From positions 1 to 64,000 of the IMG/VR virus record IMGVR_UViG_3300025162_000046: 64,000 nt of DNA, one strand, 5' to 3'. The DNA comes from a virus. The notes under the pieces are model-generated. The model saw only the letters and a program-made list of their open reading frames with translations, searched no databases and was not told the origin of the DNA. Made by a program: the position numbers and the translations under genes. Every line of letters begins with the position of its first letter. The first letter of the stretch is position 1. Positions 1 to 61,987 of this stretch are shown one piece after another.

Positions 1-1879
1 CAATGGTCTGTCCTAACAAAGCGTGAGGGCCTGCGATCAATTTGAAATTCGCTCCGCCGCTGAATTGAAGTGCGGAAGTCGGCACGGCGGTAGTCCAGAA
101 AATCCTATCGATGTTATTCATACGAGCAAAGTCGCGCTCTCGGTTTGCCATTCCTTCCTTGGTGTGAACCTTCTCAAAAAAAGGAGAGGATTCAAGCATA
201 TTGAGCATTGGCTCAAATAATAACTCGGAAGATTTCTTTTGTGAAGTTGCGCAGAAGGCTTGGGCATATATGGTGGCGGGGGAATGACCGAAGAAACGCC
301 ACGGCGAGCGCATCATAGATAGATGAGTTCCTATGTATAGATTGACGAGAACCGCCAAAAAAGAATTATGGGTGACAATATAATCATCCGTCAAATATAA
401 GCATTCCGGGTGGTCTATCATTATACAGGTCGCTTCTGCATCTTCAACTTGCTCTATTCTTGACAAGTATAAAACTTGCGTTTTTCTTTTTGTTCTTGGG
501 CGATTAAAATGATAATCAACTATGTCTTGCTTTCTCTTTAAAGAAAAAATAGGAAATTTGTTGGAAGGAAATGATATAAAAATAAAATAGCAAGGAAAGT
601 TTATTTTACAGTGGGGTCTAATAGTATCATCTCTGCTCCAAGAGGCAAGCCCCCCCAGCCCCCTCACTAATGTGAGCATATTATCCCTTAATTTTTCACT
701 AGTAGTGTTAAATACCGCTAGTCCCGATCGTTTAACCGCTGTGCCATCCGTATCCATCAGCCCCTGAAGCAATGCAATACGATTCCAAATAGAATCGTAA
801 AGATATTCCTCAGGGATAAATTTATTATTACTTCGTGTCTCTCTCAAACCTAATCGCCCTAATTCTTTTTTATAAGGGTTGCCTTTAGTATGATGATATG
901 TGAATATAGTCTGATAGTCGCATGAAACCGTTTTTGAAATTCGTGCCTGCACATCACTCGATAATTCTTTTTCAACTCGAGCATGAATTTCTTTATCATC
1001 TCCTACAAGTGTGACGGCTGATCCAAAATATCCGTCACCCAATAGAGCCCCTAAAGTATACGGGGATATAATATGGGGGTTTGCCTTGTGAAGAACAGGC
1101 TCCGTTAAAGGTATAAACCAACGATCCTTTGGGTTCTTTTCAATGGACTCTAAAATCCCTTGAGTGGTGATTGTTTTCCAATTAGGAGTTTGGAATTCTT
1201 TTTTCATATATTTTTTTTGTTGTTTATTCCACTCGATAGAGCACTTAGATTTTGCTGCTTTCCACAAATGTTCTCGACCTATATAAGTTTCTCTCCCATC
1301 AGAAAAGGTAGCTCTGAAGATTTCCTTTCTACCCTGCGGTGAGACTTTTATCACATTTGCAAATGATCCATCAGGCGTGCATACTTTTTCACCTACCTGA
1401 ATATCTCCTATGGGGATATCTCCGTGTTCGTAAGTCTTTATATTACAATCGTTCCTCTCCATTTTCCCAAAGCCGATGAAAGAATAAAGAACAGCGGTTC
1501 GATACGGCGCAGTAGGATTCATGAAATCAATAAAGGCTTGCTTGACCTGTGGCCAAATGGTTTGCGCGACAGGACCTAAATAACGCTCAGTAAGAAATTC
1601 CTCTGGTGTAGGGGGCCTATCACGATAATTGAGTCGCCAGCTATTGGATAGAAGATCCGCTTTTTGACTTTCATCAAGATCTTGATTGGTGAGAATAAAT
1701 TCAAGTGCTGTTTTGAGTTGCTGGACATTAAGACCCGTGAACTCAGGTCTGGCGAGAGCAGCCGGATCTCCTGAGAGAACATCTTTGAAAATAAATTGTA
1801 AATTGTTAAGTAGCTCAGGATCAAATGTGGATAGATCGACCCCCTTTGCTTCTTCAAGAAAAGGGTTATTTGTGGACAT
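1..1879 (-). CDS. terL: Terminase large subunit, intein-containing, 3' end outside window
   Basis: Manually translated open frame from ATG 1879 to the window edge (absent from the ORF track because there is no stop). MSTNNPFLEE...RPPTPEEFLTERYLG...RTAVLYSFIGFGK/[intein]/SFLAVLVNLY gives a Walker A GxGKS and an N-terminal motif typical of large-phage terminases. Confidence 0.75.
   Translation of the reverse strand, partial: MSTNNPFLEEAKGVDLSTFDPELLNNLQFIFKDVLSGDPAALARPEFTGLNVQQLKTALEFILTNQDLDESQKADLLSNSWRLNYRDRPPTPEEFLTERYLGPVAQTIWPQVKQAFIDFMNPTAPYRTAVLYSFIGFGKMERNDCNIKTYEHGDIPIGDIQVGEKVCTPDGSFANVIKVSPQGRKEIFRATFSDGRETYIGREHLWKAAKSKCSIEWNKQQKKYMKKEFQTPNWKTITTQGILESIEKNPKDRWFIPLTEPVLHKANPHIISPYTLGALLGDGYFGSAVTLVGDDKEIHARVEKELSSDVQARISKTVSCDYQTIFTYHHTKGNPYKKELGRLGLRETRSNNKFIPEEYLYDSIWNRIALLQGLMDTDGTAVKRSGLAVFNTTSEKLRDNMLTLVRGLGGLASWSRDDTIRPHCKINFPCYFIFISFPSNKFPIFSLKRKQDIVDYHFNRPRTKRKTQVLYLSRIEQVEDAEATCIMIDHPECLYLTDDYIVTHNSFLAVLVNLYIGTHLSMMRSPWRFFGHSPATIYAQAFCATSQKKSSELLFEPMLNMLESSPFFEKVHTKEGMANRERDFARMNNIDRIFWTTAVPTSALQFSGGANFKLIAGPHALLGQTI
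365..1462 (-). mobile_element. Contiguous 366-aa intein with LAGLIDADG homing endonuclease in the terminase P-loop; class 3-like (Met1, WCT motif)
   Basis: Starts MERNDCNIKTYEHGDIPIGDIQVGEKVCTPDG. Block B is GREHLW. LAGLIDADG motifs are PYTLGALLGDG and LLQGLMDTDG. Ends ATCIMIDHPECLYLTDDYIVTHN/S. Confidence 0.92.
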
Positions 1880-16386: not shown

Positions 16387-17436
16387 TTAGTAGAAAATCA
16401 GAGTCAAAGAGGATTTCAATTGTCGGCCCCAACCACGATGGCGTAGGGCCTCTACTGTGGTGTGTAACTTTGTAGGCACATCACCTATATCCTTAATTCC
16501 CAAATTAGGAATTTCAAGTATCTCGAAAGGCTTACCTAAGTGTTCTTTCAGGTGGCCCATAGATTTCTTTCCCGCTTCATCATTATCCGGAATCATAACA
16601 ATACGACTGAACTGTTTGAGCAACCAAATCTGTCTTTCAGAGATGCCGGCGCCGAAAGTGGCGGTGCTATTAGCAAAGAAAGGATCTGTCCTAAGCACAG
16701 CGAGTTTGGTCAAGCCTTCAACTACATATAGAGGATCCTCCCGCTTGAGAATATCTACATCATAAATTGTTTGGACGGTTGAGTCTTTAGGATAGAGGAC
16801 TTTATGTGTTTGTTTTCCTGTAGTATCACGGCCTTCAATAGCAAGCAACTTACTACCTTCATAAATAGGAATGGTGAGTCTTTTGTTGAAGGTAGTTCCA
16901 TTAATATTGCCGTGATCCATAAACCCCATAGCCATCGATTTCGCTATTTCAAAGGGGATTCCACGACGACGGAGATAACGAATCGATTCCGGATGCTTTG
17001 CGGCAGGGACTATCTCACCTCTTACTTGAATATCGATATCTTTGTCAATGACGCTATAGTCCGGCGTCACATAATTAGAAGGATCGAATGAGAAGGATGT
17101 GAACTCATCATTCACTATGTCAAAATCTTTATAGAAAGATCTACTGGTAATCCTATAGTATAGAGAAGCGAGGGATCCTTGCGCTTGGCAACTAAAACAA
17201 TGATAAACGAACTTTTCGGGGGCGATGAACATGGAGGGGGTTTTATCAATATGAAAGGGGCACGCGACCTGCCACTCATCGGAGTTATCGAGATTGTGTG
17301 TTTTTAGTTTTAGGTTGAGCGCGCGAACAACCTGCTCAGCAAGTTGCCGCTTTCTGATAGGATCATTCATTGCTTGGCGTTGCTCATCCATCTTAGAACT
17401 CCTTGACGGCGGAGCAAAACGAAAGGCAGTTGGCAT
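16387..17436 (-). CDS. DNA primase (DnaG-like)
   Basis: Zinc finger CPFH...CFSC, YLRRRGI, RLTIPI, TOPRIM VVEG...PDNDEAG. Confidence 0.92.
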   Translation of the reverse strand: MPTAFRFAPPSRSSKMDEQRQAMNDPIRKRQLAEQVVRALNLKLKTHNLDNSDEWQVACPFHIDKTPSMFIAPEKFVYHCFSCQAQGSLASLYYRITSRSFYKDFDIVNDEFTSFSFDPSNYVTPDYSVIDKDIDIQVRGEIVPAAKHPESIRYLRRRGIPFEIAKSMAMGFMDHGNINGTTFNKRLTIPIYEGSKLLAIEGRDTTGKQTHKVLYPKDSTVQTIYDVDILKREDPLYVVEGLTKLAVLRTDPFFANSTATFGAGISERQIWLLKQFSRIVMIPDNDEAGKKSMGHLKEHLGKPFEILEIPNLGIKDIGDVPTKLHTTVEALRHRGWGRQLKSSLTLIFY

Positions 17437-17470
17437 ATTAGCCTCCGATGCGTGATTCTAATATACGCTC

Positions 17471-17974
17471 TCACTTTTTAATCTTTACAGAGATTGAAGA
17501 TAAATCGATATCGTCATCATCACCCGTATTCCTTTCAAATGGATTTTTTCCTACAGGGATGTTTACATTGATGGGAGTATACGCAAGATTCTCAGCAGGG
17601 TTGAGGGGGTTTTGTTCAGGCTGTGTTTCCTTTCGAAGTGCCTTTTGAATTTGACCTTGGATTGTTTTTAGATCATCTGAGCCCTTCATAGCAATTCGAG
17701 AAATTCTCATCTTTTCTCTATCATACAGCCAAAAAGTTCCATAAGTAGAAAGAGCCTCGTGTATTTGGGGTAGAATATCATATCCTGCGAGAGTGATAAT
17801 AAGATCTAAGAATTTATCGTGGGTCATCATTCGTCGATGCTCATCACCATCCGGGTAAATAAACACTTTTTCCCTACTGGGGTCGGAATAGAGAACCAAG
17901 AAAAAGAAATTTTGGATCGGAGGGGACATTACATATAGGCTGTCAGGGGGCAAAGGAGATACAAATTCTTCCAT
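17471..17974 (-). CDS. Hypothetical protein
   Basis: 167-aa ORF, GAGGAG RBS, ACTAATTA on the minus strand at 18021-18028. Confidence 0.75.
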   Translation of the reverse strand: MEEFVSPLPPDSLYVMSPPIQNFFFLVLYSDPSREKVFIYPDGDEHRRMMTHDKFLDLIITLAGYDILPQIHEALSTYGTFWLYDREKMRISRIAMKGSDDLKTIQGQIQKALRKETQPEQNPLNPAENLAYTPINVNIPVGKNPFERNTGDDDDIDLSSISVKIKK

Positions 17975-18148: not shown

Positions 18149-20221
18149 ATGGCATTTGCGTTTGGGGGCCTAAATGTGGCCTCAACAAAGAAAAGCCTTG
18201 CGGCAGAACTGATTCAAGATATTGTTCAAATCGAACACACCTCCGATAAAGGCCCCTATATTCTTGTGCTGCTTGATGAGTTCTACTACCCCGACAAATT
18301 AAAGAAGATCTCTATCTTTCTTGAACGCAACGGAATACGGAATTATCGAGCGGTCAACGCGTTGAATTGTATCATTCCTAAAGAAGACCTTAAAGGAGAA
18401 CTTTCTCGATTCTATCGGATCAATCAATCCAAGTGGCGACAATACGCCGACGGCGCAAAAGGGGTTATCGCGGTTGGGGCCGCCCTCTATGCTATCAATC
18501 AAAGCGCGGACTTGATGACCTTTGCTTTTTATGATATTATGTTTAACAAGCCCTACTTCTGGTCCCCCGATGCGGGCACTTGGGTATTTCCTATTGATAC
18601 CTTCCAAGACATCTTCGCCCCTATTCAGCAACAGCACGGTGATAGCCATATGGAAAATCCAGGCCCTGTTAATACTTACAAAACACATTTTGCGGAGTAT
18701 CAGTTCAAGCAGATCACCTCTCTCCGCCTCCACCCCATAGTAGCCGAGAAACCCATTCTTATTAAGATAGAAAGCGTAGAAGCATTCAAAGAATTTGCCA
18801 AGCAGCACATGAATGAAGAAATACTAAGCACCGATCTTGAAACCTCAGGTCTTGATTTTATGAAATGTCGTATTGGGTGTATCACCTTTTCATTTGATGG
18901 AAAGACTGGTTATTTTGTCCCTTGGAAATTCGTAGACAAGCCTCTTCTCGATCGGATGTTCACCACTGCCAAAATAGTCGTCGGGGCCAATTTTAAATTC
19001 GATGTTAGATTCCTCTGGCACAATGGAATCCCGGCCGCTCGAGTTGATGAGGACACCGTTCAGATGGGGCATCTCATGAATGAGCAGCGCCTCAACGGCT
19101 TGAAGCCTTCTGCGTATTACTACACCCCATTTGGAGGGTATGATAGAGAACTTGATCGCTACCGAGAGAAAACCGGCATAGATGATTTCACTCTTATTCC
19201 TGAGCACATTCTATTTCCCTATGCTACGATGGATGCGATTGTCACCTATCTCGTATATGTGGCCCTATTGGAACAGATGCGCTATGTCGACAAGACAATG
19301 CCTAATGAGAAAGATCCTTCGTGGACAATAGAAAGATACTACCGAGAGATCATGATGCCTGCGGTCAACGCCTTCGCGGAAATAGAATATCGGGGAGTCT
19401 ATGTCAATCGCGAACTTCTCGCTCAATCACGACTCGCAATGCAAGTTGAGATTCAAGAGATTGAAAATGAACTCGCCGCGAAATGGAATGTGGGAGGGAA
19501 TTTTGATTTCAATAGCGCGAATCAGTTGGGCAAACTTTTTGAGCGCTTGGGCTTTGAAGAACTCGGCAGGGCAAAGAATGGTGATTACAAAACTTCGGAT
19601 GCTAGCCTTGAACGCTGGGCTAAAAGAGGCCATCCTGAGATTTCTCGGCTTCAAAGACTACGCACGCTCAATACTCTATTGAAAACCTTTATCAGCAAAG
19701 ATGAAGAGTCGGAGAAAGGGTGGGAGAGTTATGTCAGACAGCATGAAGATGGTAGTTGGAGAATGCATCCTACCTTCAATGTCATGCGCACTGAATCGGG
19801 CCGCTGTAAATCAGACTCCCCTAACATGCAGAATGTTCCGGCAGGGCATGGTGCTAACGGAGACTTGGCCTCCTTAGTAAAAAAATGTATAACTACTCCT
19901 GACCCCGAGGAATACTATCTCAGCACTCTGGATTACGCATCGCTTCAAATGCGTCTTGCTGCAATCGACACTAATTTAAACGACGGCGGCAGGGATAAAA
20001 ACCTTTACAACATCTATCTCGATCCTAAAATGGGTGGGGATATGCATAGTCGCACAGGCTTCGGCGTATTTGCAGAAGGCCGAGATTTCGATTTAGAAAT
20101 AATAGAAATTGAAGAAGACGGAAAACCCTCGAAGACCTTTTTCGGGGGGGAGTTCGTCAAGACTAAGAATAGAGGGGAGATACAAGCAAGAAACCTATCA
20201 CCTTCTGATGTTTTATTTTAA
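18149..20221 (+). CDS. polA: Family A DNA polymerase, N-terminal fragment (UDG-like domain, 3'-5' exonuclease, palm through motif A)
   Basis: Exo I DLETSG, Exo II NFKFD, Exo III YATMD; TESGR...PNMQNVP; motif A LDYASLQMR; DMHSRT. Motifs B and C are absent. Confidence 0.9.
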   Translation: MAFAFGGLNVASTKKSLAAELIQDIVQIEHTSDKGPYILVLLDEFYYPDKLKKISIFLERNGIRNYRAVNALNCIIPKEDLKGELSRFYRINQSKWRQYADGAKGVIAVGAALYAINQSADLMTFAFYDIMFNKPYFWSPDAGTWVFPIDTFQDIFAPIQQQHGDSHMENPGPVNTYKTHFAEYQFKQITSLRLHPIVAEKPILIKIESVEAFKEFAKQHMNEEILSTDLETSGLDFMKCRIGCITFSFDGKTGYFVPWKFVDKPLLDRMFTTAKIVVGANFKFDVRFLWHNGIPAARVDEDTVQMGHLMNEQRLNGLKPSAYYYTPFGGYDRELDRYREKTGIDDFTLIPEHILFPYATMDAIVTYLVYVALLEQMRYVDKTMPNEKDPSWTIERYYREIMMPAVNAFAEIEYRGVYVNRELLAQSRLAMQVEIQEIENELAAKWNVGGNFDFNSANQLGKLFERLGFEELGRAKNGDYKTSDASLERWAKRGHPEISRLQRLRTLNTLLKTFISKDEESEKGWESYVRQHEDGSWRMHPTFNVMRTESGRCKSDSPNMQNVPAGHGANGDLASLVKKCITTPDPEEYYLSTLDYASLQMRLAAIDTNLNDGGRDKNLYNIYLDPKMGGDMHSRTGFGVFAEGRDFDLEIIEIEEDGKPSKTFFGGEFVKTKNRGEIQARNLSPSDVLF

Positions 20222-20233
20222 GGGGGCTCTTCA

Positions 20234-20629
20234 ATGCCGGTGAATGGAGTTTACAAGATACTGATTGTTGACGATAGCGTATCTATCGTAACTCTAATAC
20301 AACAAATTTTTAGCCGAAGACCTCAATTCTCAACCATCGTCGCCTATGATGCAGAAACGGCTATTACCCTTATTGGCTTAGAAGATCCAGATGTTGTTCT
20401 GTTGGATTTAAGTCTTCCTCAGATAGACGGGATTAAGGCATGTCGCCAAATCAAAAAGGCGCACCCATTGTTACCAATTCTTGTTATCACAGGAGAACTA
20501 GGACGCTTTTCTAGTGAGCAGGCTCATGAGGCCGGCGCTGACGATTTTATTTCCAAGCCCTTTAATAACGAGCAACTCGTATCGCATGTCAAACATTATT
20601 TACATCTAACATCACTTAATGTAACTTAG
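20234..20629 (+). CDS. Single-domain response regulator (CheY-like receiver)
   Basis: ILIVDD, phospho-acceptor LLDLSLPQIDG, ITG, GADDFISKPF. Confidence 0.93.
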   Translation: MPVNGVYKILIVDDSVSIVTLIQQIFSRRPQFSTIVAYDAETAITLIGLEDPDVVLLDLSLPQIDGIKACRQIKKAHPLLPILVITGELGRFSSEQAHEAGADDFISKPFNNEQLVSHVKHYLHLTSLNVT

Positions 20630-22277: not shown

Positions 22278-23399
22278 ATGATTTTCCACCAAAATATTTC
22301 CCGCGATTTATTCTCCCAAAAGTATATGATAAACGGGGAAACCACCCCGGATCAGGTATTCCACGATATAGCAGTAGAAATCTCTCGACCCGAAAAACCC
22401 GGAATTCGCCTTAGAGTTCAAAATGAGTTTGAGTCGATTATGACCGAGGGTTACTTTATTCCTGGCGGCCGAATTTTGGCTAACGCACGCACTTACGGGC
22501 ATCTAAAATCGCGAAACTATAATAATTGCTTTACTATTAACATTGAAGATAACATGGAAGGCATCTATATGTCCGTGTATGAAGATGCCATGATCAGCCG
22601 TATGGGTGGTGGAGTGGGGTTCAATGTATCTAAATTGAGACCCAAGGGAAGCAAAACTACCAATGGCGGCGAAGCATCAGGCCCCGTCTCTTTCCTTCGT
22701 GTGTTCGACGCATCCGCCAAAACCATAAGCAGCGGTGGGGCACGGCGCTCAGCGCATATTGCTCTTCTGGATATTTCTCACCCGGACATCGAAGAGTTCA
22801 TTACCGTCAAGCAAGGGGACAAAGATAAAAAACTTTCTCAATTCAACATCTCTGTAATCATCACCGATGCTTTTATGAAGGCGGTGAGTGAAGATGCTGA
22901 TTGGGATTTGGTATTCGAAGGAAAAGTTTACAGAACTCTAAAAGCCCGAAAATTATACGAGACACTCGCTAAGAATGCCTATGAGCACAACGACCCGGGC
23001 GTTTTCTTTGTTGACACCGTTCAACGAGATAATAATGCTTGGTGGGCATTTGTTATGGATGCGTGTAATCCCTGCGTCGCAGGAGCGACTCAGGTAGAAT
23101 TCAGAATCGGAGACAGTCCCCCTCACAGTATCGCCATACAGGACCTAGCAGAAATCTACAAGGGGCTAAAATCTGGTCAGTACATCTACGTAAAGTCCTA
23201 CGATGAGAAGACCCAACAAGTTGTTTGGAAGATGTTGCAAGGAGCAAACCTCACTAAGAAGGACACTGAGCTGCTTCAGATCACCGATACAGAAACTGGG
23301 AAGGTTATTCGCTGCACCCCGGATCATAAGATTCTTACGAAGCGAGGTTGGGTCGAGGCTCAGGCTCTCGAGGCTGATGACCAGATTATCCAGGCGTAA
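22278..23399 (+). CDS. nrdJ: Class II ribonucleotide reductase, N-terminal fragment fused to split intein N-half
   Basis: PGGRIL, NCF, GGGVG, SGPVSF, GGARR, HPDIEEFI, NISV, then ...ACNP/CVAGAT intein start. Confidence 0.93.
   Translation: MIFHQNISRDLFSQKYMINGETTPDQVFHDIAVEISRPEKPGIRLRVQNEFESIMTEGYFIPGGRILANARTYGHLKSRNYNNCFTINIEDNMEGIYMSVYEDAMISRMGGGVGFNVSKLRPKGSKTTNGGEASGPVSFLRVFDASAKTISSGGARRSAHIALLDISHPDIEEFITVKQGDKDKKLSQFNISVIITDAFMKAVSEDADWDLVFEGKVYRTLKARKLYETLAKNAYEHNDPGVFFVDTVQRDNNAWWAFVMDACNPCVAGATQVEFRIGDSPPHSIAIQDLAEIYKGLKSGQYIYVKSYDEKTQQVVWKMLQGANLTKKDTELLQITDTETGKVIRCTPDHKILTKRGWVEAQALEADDQIIQA
23073..23396 (+). mobile_element. Split intein N-fragment (108 aa) of NrdJ
   Basis: CVAGATQV... 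block A; IRCTPDHKILTKRGWVEAQALEADD block B, followed by a stop. Confidence 0.92.
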
Positions 23400-23656
23400 G
23401 CAACATCAACTCACAGAGATCAAGGGCTGCATCGAGAGAGGTATCCTCGGATCTAGCTTTCAGGAGATATCAATCGAAGCTCCAAAAGATGTGTGAGACT
23501 ATTATGAACCGGCAAGCAATAGGCTTTCCAGAATTAATAAGAGATATAGATAGGATAGTGAAAGAAGAAAAGGAGAGAGGCTTGATACCAAGAACGTTTG
23601 GATTGAGTAGACAGTCCATAGATAAATATAGAGTACGGGAGGTATTCGAGTGTTAA
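23400..23656 (+). pseudogene. Probable remnant of a deleted gene (homing endonuclease?) between the intein halves
   Basis: Start-less open frame ...MCETIMNRQAIGFPELIRDIDRIVKEEKERGLIPRTFGLSRQSIDKYRVREVFEC* that overlaps the IntC start, in the position occupied by the endonuclease in the SbcC locus. Confidence 0.4.
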
Positions 23657-23751
23657 CCATTGAGAAGGTTCGTAATGAAGATGTGTACGATCTATCCGTC
23701 GAAGGAACTCATAATTTCTTCGGCAATGGAATGGTTGTACATAACTGTGGT
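23650..23751 (+). CDS. nrdJ: NrdJ C-terminal part, exon 1: split intein C-fragment (32 aa) plus Cys-Gly
   Basis: GGGAGG RBS, GTG 23650; MLTIEKVRNEDVYDLSVEGTHNFFGNGMVVHN/CG. Too short for the ORF track. Confidence 0.92.
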
Positions 23752-23986
23752 GGAATTTAGCGCCTCAGTATAATCACAGGGTGAATTGCTGGAAAGCTAA
23801 GCGGAAGTAAGCTAATCAGCAGCCAAGCGCGGTAGGGATACCGCGAAGGTTCAGAGACTAACAGCCGAGTCCAGATCGGACAGTAATGCTGACACGAGCG
23901 CCCTGCTCACGAAAGTGATGAAGATATAGTCCGATACTCCAGTGAAAATTGGAGAGCTATGATAAAGAGCATAGCAATAACAGATG
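23752..23986 (+). ncRNA. Group I self-splicing intron (235 nt, no ORF)
   Basis: 5' exon ends in U and the intron ends in G. P AATTGCTGGAAA (23784), Q AATCAGCAG (23814), R GTTCAGAGACTA (23849), S AAGATATAGTCC (23921). P3 CAGGG/CCCTG, P7 GACTA/TAGTC. P10 GGAATTT pairs with 3' exon AAATTCC. Removal restores CG-EIPMP in frame. Confidence 0.93.
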
Positions 23987-25453
23987 GAAATTCCCATGCC
24001 CGCATATAGCCTCTGTTGCCTCGGTGCACTCAATCTAACAAAATTCATAATAGATCCCTTCACACCTGTTGCGCGTTTTCATTTTCAAAAAATGGCAGAG
24101 ATTGTGAAGACCGCCGTCAGGCTATTAGATAATACGCTTGACGCAACACAATACCCTCTTGAACGCATAGAGACTTTCTCAAAACAATGGCGCCGCATTG
24201 GTCTTGGTTTTACTGGCCTAGGTGATGCGCTTGCTATGCTTGGAATGAAGTATGGAGATGAGAGCAGTGTCGCGTTTTGCGAGATCTTTGGTCGTTCTCT
24301 TCGTGATGCTTCCTATCGAGCATCGGTTGAACTGGCGAAAGAGAAAGGTATGGCTCCTGGGCTTAAATCCGGCTTCTTCAAAAACAAACCTGATCCGCGC
24401 CTTACCTTAGGCGACTTCATTACCAAGATGCCGTTCGATCTTAGGAGAGATATTGGCAAATATGGCCTTCGCAACATAGGACTCAATACCGCAGCACCAA
24501 CCGGCACCATCTCTTTAACCGTTGGAAACAATTGCTCATCGGGGATTGAGCCGATCTTTGAGTATCAATTTACCCGTAATATTCGCACCGGAACCGGAGA
24601 TGAGACGAAGCCCGAGATAGTGCGTGACTACGCTTGTCTTATTTGGGAACAAAACCATCCCGGCGAGCCGCTTCCCACTTACTTTGTTACTGCGTTGGAG
24701 TTGGAGCCTCGCAAGGCGATTGATATCCAGGCGGCAATTCAAAAATATATAGATCATAGCATCTCAAAAACTTTTAATTTCGATGGTAAAAAATTGGGGT
24801 TTGAGGAATATAAAGATCTATTTACTTATGGTTATAAATCGGGCTTGAAGGGATATACTAGTTTTAATATTTCTGGTAGTATGAAAGGTGTTCTTGAATC
24901 AAGAGCACAGCCTAGTGAAGATAAACTAGATTCCTTTGTTCTTAGATCTAATGCTCCTAAACGCCCGAATGAACTGCCGTGCGACATACACTATGTCCAT
25001 GCTAACGGGCAGGACTTTATTGTTCTCGCTGGCCTACTCAACGGATCGATTTATGAGATTTTCGTTGATGAGCAGAATGGCCATGATTTCGGTTCTCTCA
25101 AATCCGGCAAGATCATCAAAAAAGGAAAAGGAGAGTATTCTCTCATAGACCCCGAAGGAAAAATGTTGGTTGAAGGGCTATCAAAAAACTTCAATGGAAC
25201 TTGGGGGTCTCTTGCGAGGATGATTTCTATGTCGTTGCGACACGGAGTTCCCCTCCAATTTATCATTGACCAGTTACAGCGCTCAAAAGAATTCTTGGGG
25301 TTTGAGAAGGCGGTATCTCGCGTGCTCAAACACTATATGAAAGAAGGCGAGGTATATGAATCGAAGGATAAATGTTCAAAATGTGGTGGTAAGCTAATAT
25401 TCCAAGAAGGCTGTTATGTTTGTAAATCGTGCGGCAATTCGGCCTGTACTTAG
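23987..25453 (+). CDS. nrdJ: NrdJ C-terminal part, exon 2
   Basis: EIPMPAYSLCCLGALNL, RRIGLGFTGLGD, APTGTIS, SSGIEP, C-terminal TSCPD-like region and CSKC...CYVCKSC zinc ribbon. Confidence 0.93.
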   Translation, partial: EIPMPAYSLCCLGALNLTKFIIDPFTPVARFHFQKMAEIVKTAVRLLDNTLDATQYPLERIETFSKQWRRIGLGFTGLGDALAMLGMKYGDESSVAFCEIFGRSLRDASYRASVELAKEKGMAPGLKSGFFKNKPDPRLTLGDFITKMPFDLRRDIGKYGLRNIGLNTAAPTGTISLTVGNNCSSGIEPIFEYQFTRNIRTGTGDETKPEIVRDYACLIWEQNHPGEPLPTYFVTALELEPRKAIDIQAAIQKYIDHSISKTFNFDGKKLGFEEYKDLFTYGYKSGLKGYTSFNISGSMKGVLESRAQPSEDKLDSFVLRSNAPKRPNELPCDIHYVHANGQDFIVLAGLLNGSIYEIFVDEQNGHDFGSLKSGKIIKKGKGEYSLIDPEGKMLVEGLSKNFNGTWGSLARMISMSLRHGVPLQFIIDQLQRSKEFLGFEKAVSRVLKHYMKEGEVYESKDKCSKCGGKLIFQEGCYVCKSCGNSACT

Positions 25454-58392: not shown

Positions 58393-58818
58393 ATGATTAC
58401 TCTAAACAGTTTGACTATCAAAAACTTTATCTGCGTTGAGTCCGCCGATTTCGATTTTATCAACAACTATATCACAGTTTTCTTTGGGGCGAATGGTAGC
58501 GGCAAATGCATCGAAGGCTCTACAAGAATCAAAACCAAACAATTCGGGGAACTCCCAATTAAAGAACTTTTTAAGAAATTGGAAGTTTCACCTTCTGTTA
58601 AAATGGCTCTTCCCAAAGAAGGACTTGAAGTTTGGACTGATGAGGGGTGGAAATCCATTGAGGCATTCTGGATCACCCCGCCCGAGCCTTTGTGGGAACT
58701 GGAATTAGATGATGGTATAGTTCTGCGAGCCAGTGCAGACCATCGTGTAATGACGCAGCGCGGCTGGGTGAAGCTAAAGGATCTCCAGGAATCAGATGAG
58801 ATTCTGCGGGAAGAATGA
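58393..58818 (+). CDS. Rad50/SbcC/gp46-like ATPase N-terminal fragment fused to split intein N-half (58507-58815)
   Basis: LTIKNF...FFGANGSGK/CIEGSTRIKT...LRASADHRVMTQRGWVKLKDLQESD. Confidence 0.93.
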   Translation: MITLNSLTIKNFICVESADFDFINNYITVFFGANGSGKCIEGSTRIKTKQFGELPIKELFKKLEVSPSVKMALPKEGLEVWTDEGWKSIEAFWITPPEPLWELELDDGIVLRASADHRVMTQRGWVKLKDLQESDEILREE

Positions 58819-58863
58819 CAATCTATCCGGATACTCCCTACTAATTAATTCAGGGGATTTATC

Positions 58864-59970
58864 ATGGATTTACAAACTCTTGCAAAAAATCTTTATGGTG
58901 AGGATTATTCTTTATGGCAACTCGGTTCGTTGAGGCGACAACTACAAAAAAAGAAAATAACCGAAGTTGATATTACTTGGAGAGAAGAAGAAAATGGTTT
59001 CGGCGCTTGGGATATGATTCATGGTATCCCTTTATCTTGTAATACTTATTGGCATAGCTATGCTTGCACTTCTTGTGGTAAAAAAATTATTGATATAGAT
59101 CGAAATCATAAACGCCGGGCTAATCCTACCCTTTGCGGGCATTGCAGCAAATCAAAAACTTTAACAGAAGTGAATCGAAATTCCAATAAAGTAAAAAACG
59201 CAGAGATTTTTGCTGACCCTCTTCTAGGCTCTATTCGGAAAGAAAAACTAAGAGAAAATAGGATTCGAATAAACCAAACTGTGATGGCAGATTTTATTCG
59301 AAACTTGTCGCCGGAGAGAAAAGAACAAATAGCCATTCAGAAGAAACAAACTTGGGGGGCTCGTCCAGTAGAGGAAAAAAAGGAAATCAATAAAACTCGC
59401 AATGGCTATCTTTATAAAAGTGAAAAGGAGATACAAGAACGAGTACAAAGAGGGGTAGAGACTAAGAAAAAAAACTTAGCTAAACTGTCCTCGGAAGAGA
59501 TCCGACAAAAAACCTTAGAGAGGGTGGCAAAAATGAAAGCTACCATTCGATCTAAACCTAAAGACCTGAGGTTTAATCACCCTGAGCGTAGATATGTAAA
59601 GGGGAAGCAAGGTGAGGTAGGGGGTGTTTATTTTCAATCATCTTACGAAGAAGCCGTATTACAGTTTTGTTGCATGAAAATGTATAAGATACAAAGAGGG
59701 CCGGCACTTGAATACTATAATCCAATAGGAAAAAGTATTTCTCTTTATTTTGTGGACTTTTTGATAAACGATACTCTTTTAGTAGAGATAAAAAGTAATT
59801 ATACTTGGGATCAAAATATAGAAATCAATAAGGCGAAAGAAAGATGCGCTCAGTCGTATGCACAAGAACAAGGGTTGACCTATCTGACGCTTATATTATC
59901 CAAGGAGGATATCAAGGATGTCAACAAGATTCTCGAAAATACGTTCAATAAAGAATTTAGAGAGAACTGA
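58864..59970 (+). CDS. Homing endonuclease, PD-(D/E)XK/TnsA-like C-terminal nuclease with N-terminal zinc finger
   Basis: CTSC...CGHC; FQSSYE...YFVDFLINDTLLVEIKS; located between split intein halves; ACTAATTA at 58840. Confidence 0.85.
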   Translation: MDLQTLAKNLYGEDYSLWQLGSLRRQLQKKKITEVDITWREEENGFGAWDMIHGIPLSCNTYWHSYACTSCGKKIIDIDRNHKRRANPTLCGHCSKSKTLTEVNRNSNKVKNAEIFADPLLGSIRKEKLRENRIRINQTVMADFIRNLSPERKEQIAIQKKQTWGARPVEEKKEINKTRNGYLYKSEKEIQERVQRGVETKKKNLAKLSSEEIRQKTLERVAKMKATIRSKPKDLRFNHPERRYVKGKQGEVGGVYFQSSYEEAVLQFCCMKMYKIQRGPALEYYNPIGKSISLYFVDFLINDTLLVEIKSNYTWDQNIEINKAKERCAQSYAQEQGLTYLTLILSKEDIKDVNKILENTFNKEFREN

Positions 59971-61987
59971 AAATTGCTATGATATTCAGGTCGCAGATAT
60001 TCAGCGGTACTTCTCTAATGGAATTGTAAGCCATAATTCTAGTATTTTTGAGGCCATCGCCTTATGCTGGACAGAGCGCAGGAGAGGCGACTCCTATAAG
60101 GATTTCATCAAGCACGGGACTGATTCTGCAGAGATTCACCTTGTTGCCAGTATTCACGGCGAACCCATTCAATTCGATGTGGAGATTCGTGATAAGAAAG
60201 GGGCGACTCCTTTTCAACGAACTATCACTTATAAAAAAGAGAAGTATGTAAATTCAGAGTGCACTACGCTTCTCACCTCCTTCGATATTGATTATCTCCA
60301 ACACATTATGTTCTCTATGCAAGGTGAGAATAACATTACTGATCTCAAACCCTCCGAAAGAACTAAACTTCTCAAGCGTATTTTCAATTTCGAGTTTGAA
60401 TCTCAATTGAGCCAACTTGATAAATTGGTTGAACAAGAAGAACAGAACAGCCTCGTGCTCAAAACTCGCGTTGATGTTTTATCTCATATGAAATTTGAAT
60501 ATGAGCAAGCGGAGCAAACCCTTACTCTCGACAAGCGCAGCGAAATAGAAAATCGCATTACCGAGATCGATGAAATCATAAGAGTGCAAGAACAAAATCA
60601 ACTTCTTCAATCCGAAACTTCTCATCGACTCGAAAGTCTCCGCGCCCAAGGTCAAGCTGCGTCAGCACGCAAGCATTCTATCGAAAAAGATATCAGTGAC
60701 CTTAATAGTTCGTATACTCGACTACTCGGGGATAAGAATCGACATAGTCAAGCATTACTTACTCTCCCCGATTCCGTGAAACTCGAAGAAGAAATCAAAG
60801 AGAAAACCGCGGCAATTGAATCGTTCAAGATTCTCGTGGAGCAAAATCGTCTTCTTATTCAAGAGAAGGAAAACAATCTCGGATCTCGTCAAAGCCGTAT
60901 CCTTGAACTTAGGAATCACATCGTAGCACATAAGCAAGGCATTTGTCCTCAGTGTGGGCAAGACACTCATCCTGAAACCGTTCCTGAACTTGAGACCTCT
61001 TTGGAATCAGTTGAACAATTGTATGAGGAGCTCCTCTCACAAAAAATGATGCTTGAGACCGCTGAGAAAGGTGCCGAGAGAAACATCTCCACCTATCAGG
61101 CGGCAATACCTAATCTTAGAGAAAAAATCAAATCGTCTGCGGATATGAAAATCCAGTTTGAGAGCATTTTCAAAACCATCGAAGAAAGCACCCAGCAAAC
61201 AAACGGAACCATTGAAATTCGAAAATCCACTTTGTTGGAAGTCGAGAATCAGATCAAAGAACTCGAACAGCAAATTGAAGAGATCTCTCCTAAATTGGTT
61301 CGAATGATTCCTACCACATCTCTTCTCAGTGAGAAGAGTGGGTTAGCTAATCAGGTTCAGAGGCATCTTGCTGTCATCGCTCGCAACGAAGTAATTGAGC
61401 GTAAAAATATAGAGATGAAACAAAAAGAAGAAGGGAACAAACAACTACTGATAGACCTCAACCGGCAACAAAACGATTTGCTGCTATCGACGAATAATTA
61501 TAAAGACGCGAAGCGCATATTGGAAGTAGACCTACCCAATTATATCATTGTCAAAGCGTGCTCAAAACTTGAAAAACATATCAATCATTTTATCTCTGAG
61601 GTCAAGGAAGGGATGGTAGTTAGGCTATTCCAAGCGCGCTCGGGAGTTGAATTTTTCTATTCCCCAGTAGGAGAAGTAGCAAATTCTGAAGATTGGACCT
61701 CTACAAAAATGGCATCGGGATTTGAACGGGAATTGCTATCAGCCGCGTGGAGAGTAGCGTTAGCAAGGGCTTATAATCTACACGCGCTTATGCTTGATGA
61801 GGTGGATAGCGCGGCTAACACCTTCTCATCTGAAAAAATGTTTAGAGAGATCGCTAATCTCACCGGCTTTGAGCAGCTCTTCATAGTGAGTCACAAGCCT
61901 GAAGTAGTCGATATTTTATTACAGGAAAATGAGAGAGTGACCGCGTATTTCGTCCAAGATGGTATCTTTACTCGTCAAGAATACTAA
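59918..61987 (+). CDS. Split intein C-half (40 aa) fused to Rad50/SbcC/gp46-like C-terminal fragment
   Basis: MSTRFSKIRSIK...CYDIQV...YFSNGIVSHN/SSIFEAI; coiled coils, CPQC zinc hook, ASGFE signature, LMLDEVD Walker B, VSH. Confidence 0.93.
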   Translation: MSTRFSKIRSIKNLERTENCYDIQVADIQRYFSNGIVSHNSSIFEAIALCWTERRRGDSYKDFIKHGTDSAEIHLVASIHGEPIQFDVEIRDKKGATPFQRTITYKKEKYVNSECTTLLTSFDIDYLQHIMFSMQGENNITDLKPSERTKLLKRIFNFEFESQLSQLDKLVEQEEQNSLVLKTRVDVLSHMKFEYEQAEQTLTLDKRSEIENRITEIDEIIRVQEQNQLLQSETSHRLESLRAQGQAASARKHSIEKDISDLNSSYTRLLGDKNRHSQALLTLPDSVKLEEEIKEKTAAIESFKILVEQNRLLIQEKENNLGSRQSRILELRNHIVAHKQGICPQCGQDTHPETVPELETSLESVEQLYEELLSQKMMLETAEKGAERNISTYQAAIPNLREKIKSSADMKIQFESIFKTIEESTQQTNGTIEIRKSTLLEVENQIKELEQQIEEISPKLVRMIPTTSLLSEKSGLANQVQRHLAVIARNEVIERKNIEMKQKEEGNKQLLIDLNRQQNDLLLSTNNYKDAKRILEVDLPNYIIVKACSKLEKHINHFISEVKEGMVVRLFQARSGVEFFYSPVGEVANSEDWTSTKMASGFERELLSAAWRVALARAYNLHALMLDEVDSAANTFSSEKMFREIANLTGFEQLFIVSHKPEVVDILLQENERVTAYFVQDGIFTRQEY

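Follow-up and report, generated by a model that had tools for sequence, protein, structure and literature searches.

How can a DNA polymerase function when its gene ends before half of the active site has been encoded? This question is raised by a gene in the window, i.e., the first 64 kb (positions 1 to 64,000) of the 73,815-base viral record IMGVR_UViG_3300025162_000046, which encodes the N-terminal part of a family A DNA polymerase (hereafter PolA-N or N-half) and stops ahead of motif B. The answer that we consider likely, taken as one statement covering the split, a dead-intein module and non-covalent assembly, is that an uncultured jumbo phage makes its family A DNA polymerase in two pieces, of which this open reading frame (ORF) encodes the N-terminal one. 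CheckV puts the completeness of the record at 37%, indicating a phage genome of roughly 200–300 kb.

A polymerase gene that stops before motif B

The ORF contains an N-terminal domain, a 3'-5' exonuclease, the thumb, motif A and helix N (Table 1). Thus, among the features that define a family A Pol I, the exonuclease and the N-part with the motif A aspartate (DYSxxxxR) are present, and motif B (RxxxKxxxFxxxYG, the O helix) and motif C (HDE) are absent. PolA-N covers only positions 3–195 of the 381 positions in the Pfam DNA_pol_A profile, and its C-terminus reads ...GRDFDLEIIEIEEDGKPSKTFFGGEFVKTKNRGEIQARNLSPSDVLF, followed by the stop codon TAA at 20219-20221. A six-frame Pfam search revealed no motif B/C coding sequence anywhere in the 73,815-base record, the window included, and tblastn with the C-parts of fused homologues detected no PolA C-part in any frame of the record (best E 0.15). 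An earlier note on this stretch had stated that the polymerase ends after motif A and before motif B, which agrees with the ORF and its profile coverage, and that the window lacks a motif B/C fragment, a statement that extends to the entire record.

From 5.8 billion proteins we retrieved 98 homologues, about 76 of which (660–720 residues; identity down to ~35%) share both the stop and the tail of PolA-N. The stop falls at the identical residue in three IMG/VR relatives (75%, 75% and 59% identity), and a receiver gene comes next in them as well; cultured phages offered no close relative, with a best tblastn identity of 25–27% and the tail covered by none. Comparison with one of the relatives (L002) gave proportions of non-synonymous (pN) and synonymous (pS) differences of 0.17 and 0.88 (saturated) for the body (75% protein identity) and of 0.21 and 0.69 for the tail (70% identity). 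Since synonymous change is saturated, non-synonymous change is low and 70% of the tail is conserved in L002, the tail is, judging by these substitution patterns, under purifying selection. The recurrence of stop and tail, together with selection on the tail, rules out misassembly, a recent pseudogene or a random read-through tail, and the split of this polymerase is almost certainly natural. The earlier note had proposed a naturally split enzyme and had raised misassembly as a concern; the same stop and tail recur in ~76 of 81 members of the clade described below, which bears out the proposal, and misassembly was rejected because dozens of independent assemblies agree on the stop position. We also rejected a group I intron behind the stop, as the NrdJ intron described below is the only intron reported by Rfam, with none near position 20221.

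Next, we searched the whole records of larger relatives for the missing part with a fused homologue as query. In G004 (305,833 bp, with terminal repeats, 100% complete), whose N-half is 53% identical to PolA-N, the N-half lies at 90579-92594 (-) and a 318-residue C-half at 298953-299747 (+), with 208 kb between them. The halves are 38 kb apart in G006 and 4 kb apart in G005 (284.7 kb), where a SegE-like GIY-YIG endonuclease gene stands between them, directly upstream of the C-half; among the relatives examined, G005 alone has such a gene in this place. In G007 (158.8 kb; L029, L033, L037) three polymerase ORFs correspond to query residues 1–303, 294–706 and 711–1024, so the N-half there is split once more. 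Two further pairs were recovered as proteins: N-half P0018 (59% identical) and C-half P0106 each lie on one ENA contig of 292,485 bp, and P0020 (N-half) and P0118 (C-half) each on one JGI contig of 274,414 bp, co-location resting in both cases on the identical size of their single contigs. The C-halves comprise ~270–320 residues and carry RQxAKxxNFxxxFG and HDSxD. Their start is uniform (M-L-K-I-x-K/R-x-T-V-x-R-x-I-T-L-E-E-F), such that a basic strand, MLKIxKxTVxRxIT, precedes motifs B and C. The separate motif B/C ORF that the earlier note had suggested looking for elsewhere in the genome is hence present in relatives (G004, G005, G006 and G007), outside the phage's own record, and the IntC-like strand with which it was expected to open has its counterpart in this basic strand.

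The C-half of the window's own phage was not found in its 37%-complete record, and scans of viral and metagenome contigs yielded C-halves of relatives, none assignable to this phage. Both results count against a two-piece enzyme, and the lack of a C-half from 73.8 kb of sequence would also fit a decaying or stand-alone fragment (e.g., exonuclease-only) that has no partner, in a phage replicating with another polymerase. We regard this alternative as very unlikely: the record is incomplete, motif A and the whole N-part of the polymerase are under purifying selection, and each sufficiently complete relative has exactly one C-half with motifs B and C intact. The C-half gene of this phage, unseen because of the incompleteness of the record, very probably exists.

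In the window, a primase gene and a gene for a 167-residue protein on the minus strand lie just upstream of PolA-N (16387-17974). Their homologues in G004 are located just upstream of the C-half gene (L035 3-1264), which is followed by a DNA ligase gene, indicating that one of the halves has moved from an ancestral polA locus.

The junction module and its likeness to split inteins

What, then, is the tail in which PolA-N ends? Five fused homologues of ~1000 residues (P0053, P0055, P0061, P0066 and P0067) contain the tail, a linker of 4–10 residues, the sequence of the C-half head and then motif B. Because the tail runs into the head in these proteins, tail and head together make up one insertion of ~60 residues between helix N and helix O. 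More distant fused polymerases (L018, P0085, P0087 and P0092) have no such module, and helix N leads straight to ...TLEEF.... An AlphaFold2 model of P0053 (75-row alignment) reached a mean predicted local distance difference test (pLDDT) of 89.4 and a predicted template modelling score of 0.87, and as a whole superposes on the Klenow and Bst Pol I structures (E 1e-27, TMt 0.81–0.86). The module, residues 661–720, is modelled at a pLDDT of 94–97 as five strands (Table 1), and the split forms are broken between b4 and b5. Folded alone from a 27-row alignment, a 76-residue version of the module gave the same strands (pLDDT 85.6).

We then searched the 76-residue model against solved structures, using Foldseek versus the PDB and VIA-align versus 48,161 representative chains. 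About 40 of the 43 Foldseek matches listed (to rank 50) are inteins, Hedgehog or bacterial intein-like (BIL) domains, including RadA, TvoVMA, NrdJ-1, gp41-1, TFIIB, CDC21, DnaB and RecA (probability up to 1.0, E 0.05–1.7, TMq 0.55–0.59). The top 25 VIA matches all have the Hint fold (Z 6.7–3.6), with alignments that begin 40–77 residues from the intein start and extend across the site of endonuclease insertion (PI-PfuI 77..438, PI-TkoII 73..523, RecA 50..427, gp41-1 40..113). The match is partial, ~60 of ~130 residues, and corresponds to the second half of an N-terminal intein fragment (IntN) plus the start of a C-terminal one (IntC). In these model-based comparisons it is the purity of both match lists, not any single score, that carries weight.

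Sequence profiles led to the same segment. A hidden Markov model of the module, run against 177,635 PDB sequences, gave the NrdJ-1 split intein as its best match (E 0.0014), with 'ggeevkTknrGeilAsdLteeDvl' opposite 'PDHPVYTKNRGYVRADELTDDDELVV', i.e., from block B to the end of IntN. The window itself encodes two genuine IntN fragments, in an NrdJ gene and in an SbcC-like gene (Table 1), which served as comparators. With hhalign, the tail aligned to residues 64–100 of 103 of the SbcC IntN (P 1e-5 to 4e-5) and to residues 67–106 of 108 of the NrdJ IntN (P 1e-4 to 4e-4). The module profile scored 32.0 and 27.2 against the window's IntN fragments, compared with a maximum of 18.9 for shuffles; shuffled IntN sequences never reached the real scores (0/131 and 0/188; 0/319 in total). 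PolA-N and IntN end together in every alignment, and the counterpart of the tail is the C-terminal third of the IntN fragment, which begins shortly ahead of block B and reaches the split site. The C-half heads, without a significant match to IntC, resemble the start of this phage's NrdJ IntC (MLTIEKV... vs. MLTIKKH... and MLKIRRK...). Taken together, the likeness to Hint domains is observed, and we infer that the tail is quite probably Hint-derived, by descent from an intein. The parallel that the earlier note drew between this tail and the two real IntN tails is borne out above all shuffles. As to the Hint similarity of the tail, which the note had suggested checking, the tail is Hint-like in a partial fold match (Foldseek, VIA) and by profile (NrdJ-1, IntN), and the Pfam Hint and intein models do not detect it.

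The residues required for splicing are missing from the module. Across 69 tails and five fused forms there is no conserved Cys/Ser/Thr nucleophile at any candidate position 1, and the first ~40–70 residues of a Hint domain have no counterpart. At the block B site the PolA proteins have F-L/F-G-G (F-G-G in the window tail) opposite TPDH and SADH of real inteins, as the profile and hhalign alignments show, in keeping with the earlier note, which had stated that the tail lacks both the block A Cys1 and the TxxH His. Blocks F and G also lack a counterpart, with no conserved HN or +1 nucleophile in the C-halves, whose first strand runs straight into the polymerase helix ITLEEF. Furthermore, inteins are absent from the mature host protein, whereas the fused homologues hold the module in line without any means of excision. 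By its sequence the module is incapable of splicing, and without the block A nucleophile, TxxH, blocks F/G and the +1 nucleophile, trans-splicing is impossible. A class 3 or atypically split active intein was rejected as well, since there is no WCT-type or other nucleophile and no blocks F/G.

Genuine split inteins and a group I intron do operate in the same genome, which would be in favor of a covalent joining of the halves by an atypical intein, or of a stop that stems from misassembly, an intron or recoding. We consider these possibilities to be improbable in the extreme. The missing splicing residues (including a conserved +1 Cys/Ser/Thr), the direct passage of the first C-half strand into a polymerase helix and the in-line module of the fused homologues speak against joining, and the lack of an Rfam intron near 20221 and of a PolA C-part in any frame, in addition to a stop conserved in dozens of independent assemblies, speak against an artefact.

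Charge, evolution of the split and proposed assembly

The two sides of the break carry opposite charges. Net charge averages -4.7 in the 69 tails (-10.8 per 100 residues vs. -1.9 for whole N-halves) and +4.4 in 18 heads of 13–15 residues. An acidic N-part and a basic C-part are the polarity known for split-intein pairs.

Several points weigh against an intein-derived module that holds the halves together. The fold scores are modest when taken singly (Foldseek E 0.05–1.7; VIA Z below 8, a range in which, according to the tool, matches can stem from arrangements that are common); Pfam's models for Hint and intein families are silent on the tail, the module and the fused proteins, even at E 10; and the C-half head has no significant similarity to the two real IntC fragments by hhalign, its 14 residues being too short for it. 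At ~60 residues, the module is less than half a Hint domain, so that intein descent requires the loss of both ends. The fused forms show that it is tolerated as an ordinary insertion, and the large native palm/fingers interface shared by the halves could suffice for assembly. A natural split in which the tail is a beta insertion at the fingers' tip that is peculiar to the lineage, its likeness to IntN a convergence of small hairpins, and assembly a matter of the palm/fingers interface would be consistent with the silence of Pfam, with Foldseek E values above 0.05 and VIA Z values of at most 6.7, with the head's lack of IntC similarity and with the module as a normal in-line insertion in fused homologues; shorter or different inserts at this loop in more distant fused relatives also fit. 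We find this explanation unlikely, as the match lists of two independent aligners consist almost purely of Hint proteins, three sequence comparisons map the tail to one segment of IntN that ends at the split site, above shuffles, and the acidic tail and basic head are as in split inteins. It is further opposed by a near-identical tail motif at a second, different split site, found in the P0077-P0086 subclade.

The N-halves of that subclade end before motif A in a tail that is more intein-like (TRTQRGWVEAKDLTEDDTII), and its motif, TxRGWVxAxDLxExDxI, is nearly identical to that of the PolA-N tail. The recurrence of a like tail at a second split site favors a mobile, intein-type origin over a polymerase-specific insertion. 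Two C-halves, P0206 and P0246, start with MIKSIKK... or MIKIRVEH..., followed by motif A, helix N, the in-line module and motif B, and from this order may be the partners of the P0077-P0086 N-halves.

To follow the split over time, we built a FastTree tree of the N-parts with the tail columns excluded. Relic-bearing proteins form one clade of 81, 76 of them split, and the fused polymerases without the relic fall outside. The five fused proteins with the relic are nested in a single 17-member subclade, interleaved with split ones; four changes between split and fused occurred in this subclade, at least two of them forced by well-supported branches, and the halves in it are neighbours that can enclose an endonuclease gene (G005, G007). 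From this topology, the relic clade probably descends from a split ancestor and later saw re-fusion, or renewed splitting, at the one loop, with the direction unproven. Genuine inteins also occur in the family: P0093, P0151 and P0160 have genuine mini-inteins or inteins within motif B after RQMAK (RQMAKN/CLSGD...THN/CNFG), and P0071 has a genuine intein with a LAGLIDADG domain in its exonuclease domain. This PolA family is an intein hot spot.

Putting these observations together, we offer tentatively, as a possibility that is on balance doubtful, that a once-active split intein lost both catalytic ends and was kept as a non-splicing heterodimerisation module of 45 + 14 residues, while the family toggled repeatedly between split and fused forms and was refragmented before motif A. 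If true, the survival of fractured genes through intein decay could be followed in the family as a natural series, and its modules would form a set of small orthogonal protein zippers, perhaps still able to cross-talk with the genuine NrdJ and SbcC split inteins that are expressed in the same infection.

How might the two polypeptides form one enzyme? We propose that a second gene, outside the incomplete record, encodes a C-half of ~270 residues with the O helix (motif B), the remainder of the fingers and motif C. With motif A on the N-half and motifs B and C on the C-half, the active site would be composite and neither half would polymerise alone. The junction module would be a catalytically dead intein relic of ~60 residues inserted between helices N and O, with its break exactly at the position of the cut in natural split inteins, which is also the seat of homing endonuclease domains. 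The acidic four-strand tail and the basic first strand of the C-half would most likely find each other by charge; the captured strand would complete a small sheet, as in the halves of split inteins, and the completed sheet would dock helix O and motif C against motif A. In the absence of splicing, the enzyme would act as a non-covalent heterodimer, to which the native palm and fingers interface must presumably also contribute. We deem it moderately likely that the module mediates the assembly of the halves.

Known split enzymes, neighbouring genes and other fractured genes

A natural split intein comprises an IntN of ~100 residues encoded by the N-gene and an IntC of ~35–40 residues encoded by the C-gene, and fractured genes often have a homing endonuclease gene between their adjacent halves. 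The nearest structures and sequences to the PolA module are the fractured-gene split inteins of the NrdJ-1/gp41-1 type (Dassa et al., 2009; PMC2677866). As in these genes, and as with the cyanobacterial DnaE split intein, a replication gene is in two ORFs, PolA has an acidic N-tail and a basic C-head reminiscent of IntN and IntC, it is broken at the Hint fold's canonical site of splitting or endonuclease insertion, and some relatives (G005) have a homing endonuclease gene between the halves. In contrast, the PolA module has ~60 residues (tail ~45, head ~14) compared with ~140, lacks the block A nucleophile, TxxH, blocks F/G and the +1 nucleophile, stays in the mature enzyme (in line in fused relatives), and can have its halves encoded more than 200 kb apart.

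Closest in mechanism are phage Aeh1's genes for NrdA-a and for NrdA-b, which Friedrich is said to have described in 2007 as 'genes in pieces' with essential tails. The Aeh1 NrdA polypeptides have unique C- and N-terminal tails at the break, proposed to be charged interaction domains; the tails are essential, and the authors speculated that they might be what is left of a degenerate split intein (Crona et al., 2011; PMC3045599). In both systems an essential enzyme is split at its active site, with a non-covalent complex shown for Aeh1 and inferred for PolA, and the PolA tails are conserved and charge-complementary at the break. The differences are that no Hint similarity has been shown for Aeh1, whereas the PolA likeness appears in fold and profile; that the Aeh1 halves flank mobE, whereas PolA halves are often far apart; and that the PolA family is large and includes fused revertants and is known from sequence and models, whereas biochemistry exists for Aeh1.

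Split phage PolAs have been described in clade B T7-like cyanophages and in the OM43 phages MEP401/402 (PMC12695635, PMC10580990). Those polymerases are likewise encoded in two ORFs. Their cut lies between the exonuclease and polymerase domains, or is made by a small ORF inserted between adjacent halves, whereas the present split is inside the fingers, between motifs A and B, with a composite site and a dedicated junction module. A jumbo-phage survey describes split Pol III and split RNA polymerase and not a split PolA of the present kind (PMC7824862). Within a partial coverage of the literature, we met no account of a naturally occurring, splicing-dead Hint relic at a split-polymerase junction, and our literature search for natural non-splicing intein relics as assembly modules returned nothing beyond the Aeh1 speculation.

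Compared with the Klenow and Bst large fragments, the model of the fused homologue has the exonuclease, thumb, palm and fingers in common, and differs in an extra N-domain of ~200 residues and in the Hint-like module between helices N and O. The motifs differ as well, with oddities that are family-wide: Gln replaces the steric-gate Glu in motif A (DYASLQMR in the window), motif C of the relatives' C-halves is HDS (HDA in outgroups) instead of HDE, and the Tyr of motif B is Phe (NFxxxFG).

Inteins are usually viewed as active parasites or as cleanly lost. If confirmed, the PolA family would add a third fate, that of a split intein decayed to a splicing-dead core in a large natural family, where it continues to mark the two halves of an essential replication enzyme and probably keeps them together. 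The matched split and fused variants would make the speculation of Crona et al. (2011) on intein remnants testable and allow the contribution of the module to be measured. The family would moreover be a case of a Pol I active site assembled from two polypeptides whose genes lie hundreds of kilobases from each other, and the charge-steered, non-splicing beta zipper of 45 + 14 residues could be of practical use as a pair of tags. In annotation, labelling the 'truncated' PolA genes of jumbo-phage bins as pseudogenes should be avoided.

Table 1. Features of the PolA N-half locus and of the two other fractured genes in the window, with the module strands of the fused homologue P0053 (AlphaFold2 model; residue numbers).
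Feature	Position	Strand	Details
PolA N-half gene	18149..20221	+	690 residues plus stop; AGGAG ribosome-binding site 6 nt 5' of ATG
3'-5' exonuclease domain	18767..19279	+	residues 207-377; Pfam PF01612, E 2.7e-8
Polymerase thumb, palm, first part of fingers	19415..20071	+	residues 423-641; PF00476, E 6.8e-22
Motif A (DYASLQMR)	19931-19954	+	within PolA N-half
Helix N (DMHSRTGFGVF)	from 20039	+	within PolA N-half
Hint-like tail	20084..20218	+	residues 646-690; strands b1-b4 of the ~60-residue beta module
Response-regulator receiver gene	20234..20629	+	12 nt 3' of PolA-N; Pfam PF00072, E 5.6e-28; not the C-half
NrdJ N-extein plus IntN	22278-23399
NrdJ split intein IntN (comparator)	23073..23396	+	108 residues; Pfam Intein_splicing
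NrdJ IntC	GTG start 23650, through 23745		MLTIEKVRNEDVYDLSVEGTHNFFGNGMVVHN
NrdJ exon 1 'CG'	23746-23751
NrdJ group I intron	23752-23986		Rfam RF00028, 75.8 bits over 23742-23954
NrdJ exon 2	from 23987		EIPMP...
SbcC-like split intein IntN (comparator)	58507..58815	+	103 residues
368-residue ORF in SbcC-like locus	58864-59970		weak TnsA-like endonuclease match, E 2e-4
SbcC-like IntC	59918-60037		overlaps the 368-residue ORF
P0053 strand b1	residues 661-671		long, tail side
P0053 strand b2	residues 676-680
P0053 strand b3	residues 684-687
P0053 strand b4	residues 691-694
P0053 strand b5	residues 707-720		one long strand, head side

The CheY-like receiver gene always adjoins the 3' end of PolA-N in the closest relatives (including L002 and L004), and in L004 (12110-13677) it is followed by a gene for a membrane GGDEF diguanylate cyclase. 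Such receiver and GGDEF signalling genes are unusual cargo in a phage replication module.

Two other genes in the window are fractured. In the NrdJ gene (22278-25453), a split intein and a group I intron lie 6 nt apart inside the NPCGE active-site motif, with U preceding the 5' splice site and G at the 3' end of the intron; ORF finders pick the ATG at 23984, which lies within the intron. A 55-residue ORF between the NrdJ IntN and IntC (23489-23656) matches only the C-terminal helix-turn-helix end of a 338-residue endonuclease-like ORF in the same place in L002 (15271-16287), so that the free-standing homing endonuclease appears to have decayed in the window's phage. The second fractured gene, at 58393-61987, encodes an SbcC/Rad50-like ATPase and is split in the P-loop.

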